Shown: one piece after another, positions 1 through 884 of the stretch
Layout of the letters: every line of letters begins with the position of its first letter
How positions within the stretch are numbered: the stretch's first letter is position 1
Source: a virus
Taxonomy: Duplodnaviria > Heunggongvirae > Uroviricota > Caudoviricetes
DNA length: 7,332 nt
Reading direction: 5' to 3' (one strand)
IMG/VR virus record: IMGVR_UViG_3300022692_000022
Translations under genes and position numbers: made by a program
The notes under the pieces: model-generated
What the model saw: the letters and a program-made list of their open reading frames with translations, nothing else
Database searches by the model: none
What the model was told of the DNA's origin: nothing

Positions 1-162
1 GGGTTTACCGCGTTAACGGAGCGCGGCGTTGTCCCCTCATGGTCGCTGGTCCGGTGCGATGGTGGAAGAAACCGGACGATGTGTTACCTCGCATGACCTG
101 TTATGTCATGTGTCTGATTTGTGATTTAAGTCGGATAATTGTCGTTGCCATTAAGCAGAGGA

Positions 163-205
163 TTGATGGCCGACAGGGTGGCATTGTTAGAATAAGACTT
201 ATTCT
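163..205 (+). promoter_or_regulatory. Putative sigma70-like promoter overlapped by an operator-like palindrome upstream of the TonB-C lipoprotein gene
   Basis: TTGATG (163-168) and TAGAAT (188-193) lie about 19 bp apart. A 17-bp palindrome AGAATAAG-a-CTTATTCT (189-205, 8-bp perfect arms) overlaps the candidate -10 and sits about 15 bp before the ORF start. Spacing is not ideal and nothing here is experimental. Confidence 0.3.
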
Positions 206-219
206 TATCTGTGCCGGGA

Positions 220-552
220 ATGAAAATGAAAAGAAATCTTCCGTTAATTATTTTGTTGTCTTCTCTGGTTATGGGCTGTACGCAACATAAAACAGATATG
301 CCCCGACAGTTGGTTAAGGCATTACCACAATATCCGGCCTATGCAGCGGCAAATTATATAAAGGGACGGGTTGATGTGAAGTTTGATATTGGTGCTGATG
401 GTACTGTCACCCGAATTGAGTTTATCCGTTCAGAGCCGCACCATCTGTTTGATGAGCAGGTTGTAAAGGCGATGGCAAAATGGCGATTTGAGAAGGACAG
501 GCCGCGTAAAGGCGTGAAGAAAACGTTTATCTTTAGTCCTTCTGCACCCTGA
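220..552 (+). CDS. Small outer-membrane lipoprotein with a TonB C-terminal-like domain
   Basis: ORF 211-552 with stop TGA at 550-552. Alternative starts are GTG 211, ATG 220 and ATG 226 (GGGA at 216-219 gives the best spacing for 226). The N-terminus MKMKRNLPLIILLSSLVMGC has a basic n-region, hydrophobic core and a lipobox-like VMGC with Thr at +2. The mature part YPAYAAANYIKGRVDVKFDIGADGTVTRIEFIRSEP...FDEQVVKAMAKWRF matches the conserved pattern of the TonB C-terminal domain from memory. It lacks the TonB N-terminal anchor and proline-rich spacer. The surrounding sequence is visibly AT-richer than the packaging genes. Confidence 0.72.
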   Translation: MKMKRNLPLIILLSSLVMGCTQHKTDMPRQLVKALPQYPAYAAANYIKGRVDVKFDIGADGTVTRIEFIRSEPHHLFDEQVVKAMAKWRFEKDRPRKGVKKTFIFSPSAP

Positions 553-683
553 TTATTTCATCAGAAATTAATTATCACTCTGTTGTTATTCTGTACATCC
601 CGGCAGGGTAAGTCTTGTTCCGTCGGATATGAAGATGAAATATTGTTGGAGGACAGTGGGTAGCTGCTCCTGTAACCGAACGT

Positions 684-884
684 TCATTTCTCGTTATTTG
701 TCATGCTGGCCGGGCGCAGGTGCGTTGCATCTGTTGCCAGCCTTCTCCGGCAGGCTTCAATAACCCACGCTGAAAAGTTACCGGACCCTTTATGCTCAAG
801 GGCGATGTTGATCTGTTCAATCATGTGATTGGGGAAACGGATATTGCGGGTTGTGGTTCTGCGGGTCCGGTTTTTCGATGACAT
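684..884 (-). CDS. Small ribbon-helix-helix-like DNA-binding protein (resembles the YlcI/YnfO DUF3950 family found next to terminase genes in enterobacterial prophages)
   Basis: Minus-strand ORF 684-944. The preferred start is the internal ATG at 882-884, which has a strong RBS (AAGGAAA) about 7 nt upstream on the minus strand; the upstream Met at 944 has none. The product MSSKNRTRRTTTRNIRFPNHMIEQINIALEHKGSGNFSAWVIEACRRRL... has a basic N-terminus, a short beta-strand (NIRFP), helix, G-x-N turn and second helix, as in Arc/CopG/MetJ RHH proteins. The family assignment is from memory, not a search. Confidence 0.6.
   Translation of the reverse strand: MSSKNRTRRTTTRNIRFPNHMIEQINIALEHKGSGNFSAWVIEACRRRLATDATHLRPASMTNNEK

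Follow-up and report, generated by a model that had tools for sequence, protein, structure and literature searches.

What is a lipoprotein built on TonB's C-terminal domain doing beside the packaging genes of a lambdoid prophage? The question is raised by a 7,332-nucleotide (nt) stretch of viral DNA (IMG/VR record IMGVR_UViG_3300022692_000022; hereafter the window), which is the late region of a lambdoid Escherichia coli prophage of the Shiga toxin (Stx) type and encodes such a protein at positions 220-552 on the + strand. A reading made from the sequence alone (the sequence-only reading) had taken the gene for an acquired accessory gene, and had proposed that its product could occupy the TonB boxes of TonB-dependent receptors and so block the entry of TonB-dependent phages and colicins. 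The gene is already annotated in databases, and its existence is not new; the present work adds a link to iron regulation.

A predicted outer-membrane lipoprotein with the TonB C-terminal domain

The open reading frame (ORF) spans 211-552 (+) and contains in-frame ATGs at 220 and 226, giving a product of 110 or 108 amino acids (aa), respectively; in near-identical prophages in RefSeq the start is the equivalent of ATG 226 (108 aa). Counted from ATG 220, the signal peptide (220-279, +) ends in the lipobox LVMG followed by Cys20 (277-279), which is predicted to be acylated. The N-terminus, MKMKRNLPLIILLSSLVMG followed by C, matches a PROSITE-type lipobox pattern (IILLSSLVMGC), with a basic n-region and a hydrophobic h-region preceding the lipobox Cys, and this Cys is invariant among 20 family members, in agreement with the lipoprotein signal that the sequence-only reading had recognized. 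The residue at +2 is Thr here and Thr, Ser or Ala across the family, but never Asp. Under the +2 rule, Asp at this position gives inner-membrane retention; Lol-dependent sorting to the outer membrane is therefore predicted, and the mature lipoprotein is probably located there. Its lipidated Cys is its only Cys, and about seven residues (TQHKTDM) separate Cys20 from the domain that follows.

This domain is TonB_C (aa 28-106; 301-537, +). It matches Pfam TonB_C (PF03544; E=5.5e-15, 56 bits against a cut-off of 24.6) and TIGR01352 tonB_Cterm (56.5 bits against 27.1), and its top NCBIfam matches are enterobacterial TonB models, over residues ~152-240. A phmmer search of the PDB returned the E. coli and Salmonella TonB C-terminal domains (E ~1e-16), ungapped. 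In the alignment to E. coli TonB 153-231, which has no gaps, 31 of 79 residues are identical (39%); the numbering is that of E. coli TonB, in which 153-231 is identical to the 1u07 chain. Retained from TonB are Y163-P164, F180, F202, W213, Y215 (as F) and F230, while Q160 has become L35 and R166 has become Y41; the Q160-equivalent position is variable across the family. The AlphaFold model has a predicted local distance difference test (pLDDT) score above 90 over aa 28-108, with the order strand-helix-strand-strand-helix-strand, the last strand being aa 96-105. Foldseek aligned it to solved TonB structures (1u07, 2gsk_B, 2grx_C, 8rd6) with a root-mean-square deviation (rmsd) of 1.1-1.4 Å; for TonB in complex with BtuB (2gsk_B) and FhuA (2grx_C) the rmsd is 1.1 Å and the target template-modelling (TM) score 0.91-0.92. 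The viral structure library BFVD gave no match at E<0.001. Profile searches and structure prediction, which had been named beforehand as the check on the fold, both recover it, and Pfam, NCBIfam, the PDB sequence search, AlphaFold and Foldseek agree that TonB's C-terminal domain is present on its own.

The lipoprotein is nevertheless not a TonB, as it fails two of the three features that define the TonB transducer. The N-terminal transmembrane anchor is lacking, its place being taken by a cleavable lipoprotein signal with a mature start at Cys20, and so is the proline-rich spacer that spans the periplasm. The TonB equivalog models score only 50-73 bits against cut-offs of 265-448. With neither transmembrane anchor nor proline-rich rod, the protein cannot couple to ExbB/ExbD and therefore cannot transmit force.

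An accessory cassette with a candidate promoter

The gene lies in a cassette of ~595 base pairs (bp) (79-673; GC 0.42) that is absent from the otherwise collinear phage vB_EcoS-569R3. In a blastn comparison of window 1-1400, positions 1-78 and 674-1400 are contiguous in that phage, and 79-673 is thus a clean presence/absence segment; the deletion junction in vB_EcoS-569R3 shows a 9-bp overlap. Phages BP-4795 and PPyecE_EH1910 have unrelated filler in the place of the cassette, and only 7 of 106 matching phage records cover at least 80% of window 1-1300. Base composition sets the segment apart as well, with GC 0.42 in window 100-700 against 0.57 in 701-7332, and GC at third codon positions of 0.41 in the lipoprotein ORF against 0.52-0.65 in the HNH, small terminase and capsid genes. 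By its variable presence among collinear relatives and its deviant base composition the segment is a moron, as its AT-richness had suggested to the sequence-only reading, which was also right about a convergent neighbor (a YlcI/YnfO gene, minus strand, starting at 884 or 944 and ending at 684) and about the adjoining packaging module.

The promoter that had been proposed for the gene fared less well. A sigma-70 consensus scan found no site on the + strand; by eye, TTGATG (163-168) and an extended -10, TGtTAGAAT (185-193), can be made out, and they form an unverified candidate promoter (163-193, +) that the scan missed because its spacer is 19 nt long. The aligned equivalent of the extended -10 in phage 21 is TGtCAGAAT. 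Lambdoid late genes are organized in a late operon whose orientation the lipoprotein gene shares, so that at least late transcription should be expected. Expression in the lysogen from the gene's own promoter is possible.

Distribution, selection and the lysis-to-terminase slot

The family is present in 1616 of 5426 complete E. coli genomes (about 30%; blastn), 415 of them with a copy at least 90% identical to the window and 1201 with one at ~74%. The ~74% type is represented by gene CPT_21_73 of the classical phage 21, annotated as a "TonB C-terminal domain protein" and located between Rz/Rz1-bor and cos; it also occurs in a prophage of the avian pathogenic E. coli strain APEC O1, where it adjoins iss. 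In Klebsiella phage ST13-OXA48phi12.4 a copy with 40% identity is placed between the lysis genes and the terminase, and the copy of a Sodalis prophage lies between an Rz-like spanin and the small terminase. One lysis-to-terminase slot is thus common to four phage types with different packaging modules, namely the present prophage, phage 21, the Klebsiella phage and the Sodalis prophage.

This position invites the suggestion that the protein is a lysis accessory or spanin, an outer-membrane lipoprotein acting with Rz in the final step of lysis. The best PHROG match is indeed phrog_1267 (E=1.9e-42), which is placed in the lysis category and labelled "Rz-like spanin", and the gene is downstream of the lysis cassette in late-operon orientation. 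However, a separate Rz-like gene is already found upstream in the related prophages, i- and o-spanins are annotated in phage 21, and the Sodalis prophage encodes an Rz of its own (phrog_214). The protein, a globular TonB_C domain and no short, proline-rich o-spanin, lacks the C-terminal membrane helix of a u-spanin; moreover, close relatives lyse without the gene, and homologs occur in non-phage chromosomal contexts. We consider a role in lysis very improbable and rejected it on the separate Rz genes, the globular TonB fold without a C-terminal helix, and the non-phage homologs. The phrog_1267 label looks like a positional mis-annotation, since the members that we examined are TonB_C lipoproteins with separate Rz genes upstream.

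The gene is under purifying selection. Between the two E. coli phage clades the synonymous divergence (dS) is about 1.5 and the nonsynonymous divergence (dN) 0.19, for a dN/dS of 0.12. The ORF is intact in 68 of 68 window-type copies examined from IMG/VR, where a scan gave 189 relatives, the best 80 of which are all 98-100% identical E. coli prophage copies. These values bear on older annotations, in which several phage records call the gene a "partial tonB-like membrane protein" or a "TonB fragment", that is, a non-functional remnant of a captured tonB gene; the existence of some C-terminally frameshifted variants would fit this. Against it stand the dN/dS of 0.12 at a dS of about 1.5, the intact copies, the new lipoprotein signal peptide kept in all family members, and the annotation "TonB family protein" found among the listed matches in the E. 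coli genomes. Because of the dN/dS and the intact copies we regard the gene as maintained and functional and rejected the pseudogene explanation, whose probability we take to be negligible.

The frameshifted variants belong to the phage-21 type. Among its copies from genomes and metagenomes (P0010, P0012, P0013, P0018, P0019, P0021), several are frameshifted just after KWRFEK, so that the last beta-strand is replaced; the intact form comprises 368 sequences and one of the frameshifted clusters 130. These variants could be real loss-of-function alleles or assembly errors.

Profile searches extended the family to lipoproteins of 104-120 aa in Klebsiella, Raoultella, Pantoea, Erwinia and Sodalis, as well as in a record named Salmonella by its source. 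The Klebsiella and Raoultella copies share a single conserved place in the chromosome, next to lacI and a pair of small genes, and the Pantoea agglomerans copy lies among metabolic genes, in each case with no phage genes nearby. The family is therefore not phage-specific but is also a non-phage chromosomal gene in Klebsiella, Raoultella and Pantoea. A rough neighbor-joining tree, built without support values, separates the family as a single group from the C-terminal domain of E. coli TonB. The two E. coli phage clades are sisters, and the copy from the Klebsiella phage falls with those from Klebsiella/Raoultella chromosomes, which suggests that exchange between chromosome and phage occurred more than once.

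The two small genes that precede the Klebsiella/Raoultella copy (6939-7857 in locus L012, with the same genes in L004-L007) are on the same strand as the homolog, and neither has a PHROG match. The first encodes 123 or 136 aa, depending on the called start, and has no Pfam match; the second encodes a 142-aa Rick_17kDa_Anti (glycine-zipper) protein. Together with the homolog they may form a small envelope-protein cluster.

Fur boxes upstream of the homologs

The 200 nt upstream of each homolog were scanned for the Fur 7-1-7 motif TGATAATnATTATCA. Sites with at most two mismatches occur at 14 of 21 non-E. coli loci, as against 2 of 908 control windows from the same loci, and are placed 2-34 nt upstream of the ATG. 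Three Klebsiella/Raoultella loci show the motif without a mismatch. A single mismatch is seen in the remaining Raoultella and Klebsiella loci, in the Sodalis prophage, and in Pantoea agglomerans, an uncultured Pantoea and Erwinia sp. S63; two more Pantoea have two. Examples are the boxes at ~7975-7990 in locus L012, ~8040-8057 in L008 and ~3960-3976 in L110; others are found in L004, L101-L103, L105, L106, L111, L116, L107 and L121. Several of these loci come from close relatives and are not independent. Since the motif is found with the gene across five genera and in differing genomic contexts, the non-E. coli family is very probably iron-repressed and, on the same sequence evidence, co-expressed with TonB and the TonB-dependent transporters.

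No convincing Fur box precedes the E. coli phage copies, whose best matches, with 5-6 mismatches, are at background level. In the window the 7-1-7 motif is matched with 5 mismatches at best and the 19-bp Fur consensus with 6, and the latter figure is reached by ~5% of control windows. The window has a perfect 8-1-8 palindrome, AGAATAAGaCTTATTCT, at 189-205, between the candidate -10 and the start codon and 15-21 nt before the two ATGs. Its place is roughly that of the Fur box in the relatives; by sequence it is no consensus Fur box. Phage 21 is without the second half of this palindrome, which may be an operator.

The Fur boxes raise the possibility that the protein is an auxiliary, non-inhibitory member of the Fur regulon that aids TonB-dependent uptake, and that phages carry it as a fitness gene for iron-limited lysogens. 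It might do so by docking TonB or periplasmic binding proteins under the transporters, or by holding exposed TonB boxes between cycles. Near-consensus boxes in Klebsiella, Raoultella, Pantoea, Erwinia and the Sodalis prophage argue in this direction, as do the non-phage copies, with their conserved position in Klebsiella/Raoultella and their occurrence in Pantoea, and the presence of sit genes and iss alongside the gene in phage 21 and the APEC O1 prophage. Yet no mechanism is known through which an outer-membrane-fixed TonB domain would assist a process powered from the inner membrane, the effect of soluble TonB fragments is inhibitory, and the Fur box has been lost in the E. coli phage copies. 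We judge an auxiliary role, the leading alternative to the occupation of TonB boxes, to be unlikely.

The accompanying genes belong to the phage-21-type prophages that have the lipoprotein gene; these also carry genes of the Sit iron/manganese ATP-binding cassette importer, together with bor/iss. Phage 21 has sitB, sitC and sitD in the stretch examined, and APEC O1 has sitABCD and an additional ompC-like porin gene. These envelope and iron cargo genes form a cluster, located at 8968-11001 in L100 (phage 21) and at 17544-20993 in L125 and 863-4029 in L018 (APEC O1 prophage). The co-carriage of sit fits an auxiliary role in iron uptake and compensation for a block of TonB equally.

The same neighborhood suggests a role in the envelope or in virulence, with a partner outside the TonB pathway. 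The TonB_C domain would then serve as a generic module for beta-strand capture or peptidoglycan association, and the effect could resemble that of Bor/Iss on serum resistance, or concern envelope stability or adhesion. The gene occupies the slot that bor/iss has in lambda and phage 21, and it adjoins bor/iss in phage 21 and APEC O1; the equivalents of TonB Q160 and R166 are changed; and TonB_C occurs in many multi-domain proteins of other function. Nonetheless, the domain is closest to enterobacterial TonB and not to the divergent TonB_C proteins, the Fur boxes of the relatives point to iron, and there is no sequence similarity to Bor or Iss, all of which makes this role distinctly improbable in our estimate.

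A candidate decoy for the TonB box

What the analysis shows is the ORF with its lipobox and fold, the limits of the cassette, purifying selection on the gene, its distribution and the Fur boxes of its relatives; from these a mechanism can be proposed. Lipidation and cleavage by signal peptidase II would leave a 91-aa mature protein, anchored through Cys20 in the inner leaflet of the outer membrane. At the canonical TonB interface, a TonB box would add as a beta-strand onto the last strand (aa 96-105); the boxes could be those of ligand-loaded TonB-dependent transporters, or those of TonB-box colicins threading through them. Anchored in the wrong membrane, the protein would compete with TonB and uncouple its partners from the proton-motive force, as a natural dominant-negative "anti-TonB". 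The benefit to the phage would be that fewer TonB-dependent phages, group B colicins and microcins enter the lysogen or the infected cell, and the cost some siderophore and vitamin B12 uptake. We infer the outer-membrane location, TonB-box binding, inhibition and the exclusion of these agents.

In TonB, strand 226-231 pairs in parallel with the TonB box, with F230 beside a conserved Val, and the longer constructs of E. coli TonB have an additional strand at the C-terminus that has to give way first (PMC6118199; PMC11658791). In the lipoprotein F105 is the equivalent of F230, and the chain ends in SPSAP, five residues after the pairing strand and without the additional strand; the edge should therefore stay permanently open. 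The periplasmic TonB fragments 33-239, 103-239 and 122-239 inhibit the TonB system, an effect that the original authors ascribed to a blocked interaction between TonB and the transporter (preprint 10.1101/2020.01.05.895219). That the domain is closest to enterobacterial TonB itself likewise favors a decoy. So do its fit at 1.1 Å to TonB bound to BtuB and FhuA, the retention of the pairing strand and of every aromatic core residue, the purifying selection and wide spread of the gene, and the Fur boxes as a tie to the TonB and iron system.

Several points weigh against this mechanism. The equivalents of Q160 and R166, which in TonB are sites of specific contacts or suppressor mutations, are not conserved, and a tether of about seven residues must reach a TonB box beneath a 22-strand barrel. 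About 30% of complete E. coli genomes carry the gene, for which a strong constitutive block of TonB would be costly, and the carriers include APEC O1, a siderophore-dependent strain of extraintestinal pathogenic E. coli (ExPEC). The predicted Fur control would induce the chromosomal homologs together with TonB and the transporters, which would be odd for a pure inhibitor and would suit a modulator or helper no less than a blocker. Part of the phage-21-type population has lost the last strand to a C-terminal frameshift, and expression in the lysogen would depend on a candidate promoter that the consensus scan did not return. PADLOC gave no match to known defense-system models, and no paper on this lipoprotein was found in the literature. 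The sequence-only reading had known of no characterized phage exclusion protein of this type, and literature searches likewise found none. On balance, a TonB-box decoy that excludes TonB-dependent phages and colicins is structurally plausible and agrees with the engineered fragments; we put it forward tentatively, as the best supported of the explanations, at somewhat less than an even chance.

The Fur boxes and the decoy could be joined in one history, which we offer as a rather doubtful extension. The protein would have its origin in a cellular lipoprotein of the outer membrane, under Fur control, whose hold on TonB boxes throttles TonB-dependent import. Temperate phages would have captured the gene repeatedly and placed it in the lysis-to-packaging slot, and in E. 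coli it would have been freed from Fur. Lysogens would then be broadly tolerant, whatever the receptor, of microcins, group B colicins and phages that depend on TonB, and possibly of siderophore-conjugated antibiotics as well; the price paid in iron would be made good in phage-21-like prophages by SitABCD, an importer that does not need TonB.

Prophage setting and other features of the window

Over window 1-1300 the DNA shares 99.8% identity with several E. coli chromosomes, and 97% with four Stx1a phages and with phages Lys8385Vzw and JLK-2012. In these relatives the gene order begins with holin, lysozyme and an Rz-like lysis protein, followed by variable accessory genes (KilA-N, Rha or Gp49 family), and continues through the "TonB family protein" gene, the opposite-strand YlcI/YnfO (DUF3950) gene and an HNH endonuclease to the small and large terminase, a prohead protease-capsid fusion and the portal. 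In the window, the convergent YlcI/YnfO family (DUF3950) gene lies outside the cassette at 684-944 (-), or 684-884 with the RefSeq start. The HNH endonuclease (926-1291, +) is the first gene of the packaging module, and the small terminase subunit TerS (1580-2143, +) and the large terminase TerL (2140-3513) follow. The prohead protease-capsid fusion (3577-5514) is a 645-aa protein with Peptidase_S78 and HK97-type capsid domains; such a fusion, like an HNH endonuclease adjoining the terminase, is ordinary in this phage group. A run of 100 Ns at 2586-2685 interrupts the TerL gene, whose ORF is 1374 nt here against 1662 nt in relatives, leaving ~290 nt missing. The run is a scaffold gap or a masked stretch and no biological feature.

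At the left edge of the cassette a terminator-like hairpin is followed by a T-rich tail (90-112, +); the evidence for it is weak, as one such site was found where 1.0 was expected in shuffles. No terminator was detected downstream of the lipoprotein ORF, the folding of 545-690 being no better than that of shuffled sequences (z=-0.55), and a search around the cassette for repeats and mobile-element ends returned only short, chance-level repeats. An inverted repeat of 12 nt flanks the ORF (190-201 and 609-620; GAATAAGACTTA and TAAGTCTTGTTC; 11 of 12 positions complementary), a size that is the chance expectation in 1 kb. An 83-aa ORF at 39-290 (+) runs across the left end of the cassette and the start of the lipoprotein gene. 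It is listed as a hypothetical protein in JLK-2012; at this place phage 21 has another ORF, of 45 aa. The 83-aa ORF is unlikely to be a gene. Rfam matched no structured RNA in window 1-1600 at E<=1.

Implications

The gene is carried by prophages of Shiga toxin-producing E. coli and ExPEC and by the classical phage 21, so that the question of its function bears on a large share of E. coli strains. If the decoy mechanism is true, the gene would be a new prophage shield for its host, and an anti-TonB lipoprotein occurring in nature would add a variation to the known theme of exclusion lipoproteins that act on TonB-dependent transporters. Cor and Llp each shut a single receptor; the present protein would switch off the energy coupling that all TonB-dependent gates share. 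Sensitivity to many phages would then be affected, which is relevant to host range in phage therapy, as would sensitivity to colicins and microcins in the gut, the acquisition of iron and B12, and possibly the uptake of siderophore-drug conjugates. If the auxiliary role is the true one, the Fur-controlled homologs would be an unrecognized outer-membrane component of TonB and iron physiology in Klebsiella, Raoultella, Pantoea and Erwinia. In either case the PHROG label "Rz-like spanin" is worth correcting, as automatic annotation spreads it.

Comparison with known systems

With E. coli and Salmonella TonB the lipoprotein shares the fold, the YP motif, the aromatic core and the strand that pairs with the TonB box. 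It differs in its lipoprotein signal and in a predicted anchor in the outer instead of the inner membrane, in a chain that ends five residues past the pairing strand, and in having L for Q160 and Y for R166; energy transduction is impossible.

The closest parallel in the laboratory is provided by engineered periplasmic TonB fragments, in which the C-terminal domain is likewise in the periplasm and uncoupled from ExbB/ExbD. In a 2001 study in J. Bacteriol., fragments exported by a signal peptide reportedly inhibited ferrichrome transport and the activity of the TonB system. Those fragments are soluble, over-expressed constructs, whereas the protein described here is natural, predicted to be lipid-anchored, and 39% identical to TonB; their inhibition may, in addition, involve an interaction between ExbD and TonB.

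Bor of lambda and Iss resemble the lipoprotein in position and kind, as small outer-membrane lipoproteins encoded by an accessory gene in the slot between Rz and cos. They have no relationship to it in sequence or fold, and bor is on the opposite strand, has its own promoter and is linked to serum resistance.

By function, the nearest phage precedents would be Llp of T5 and Cor of phi80, N15 and T1, small phage-encoded lipoproteins at the inner leaflet of the outer membrane that act on FhuA from the periplasm (PMC9586334; preprint 10.64898/2026.03.26.714494). Llp works by jamming the plug of FhuA and by an allosteric closure of the extracellular loops, with no contact to the TonB box (PMC9586334; preprint 10.64898/2026.03.26.714494), and both Llp and Cor carry an intramolecular disulfide (PMC9586334). 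The present protein, by contrast, has an unrelated TonB_C fold and no Cys besides the lipidated one. It would not stop reversible adsorption, and, whereas Llp is specific for its own receptor, it would act on the TonB box that is common to all such transporters.

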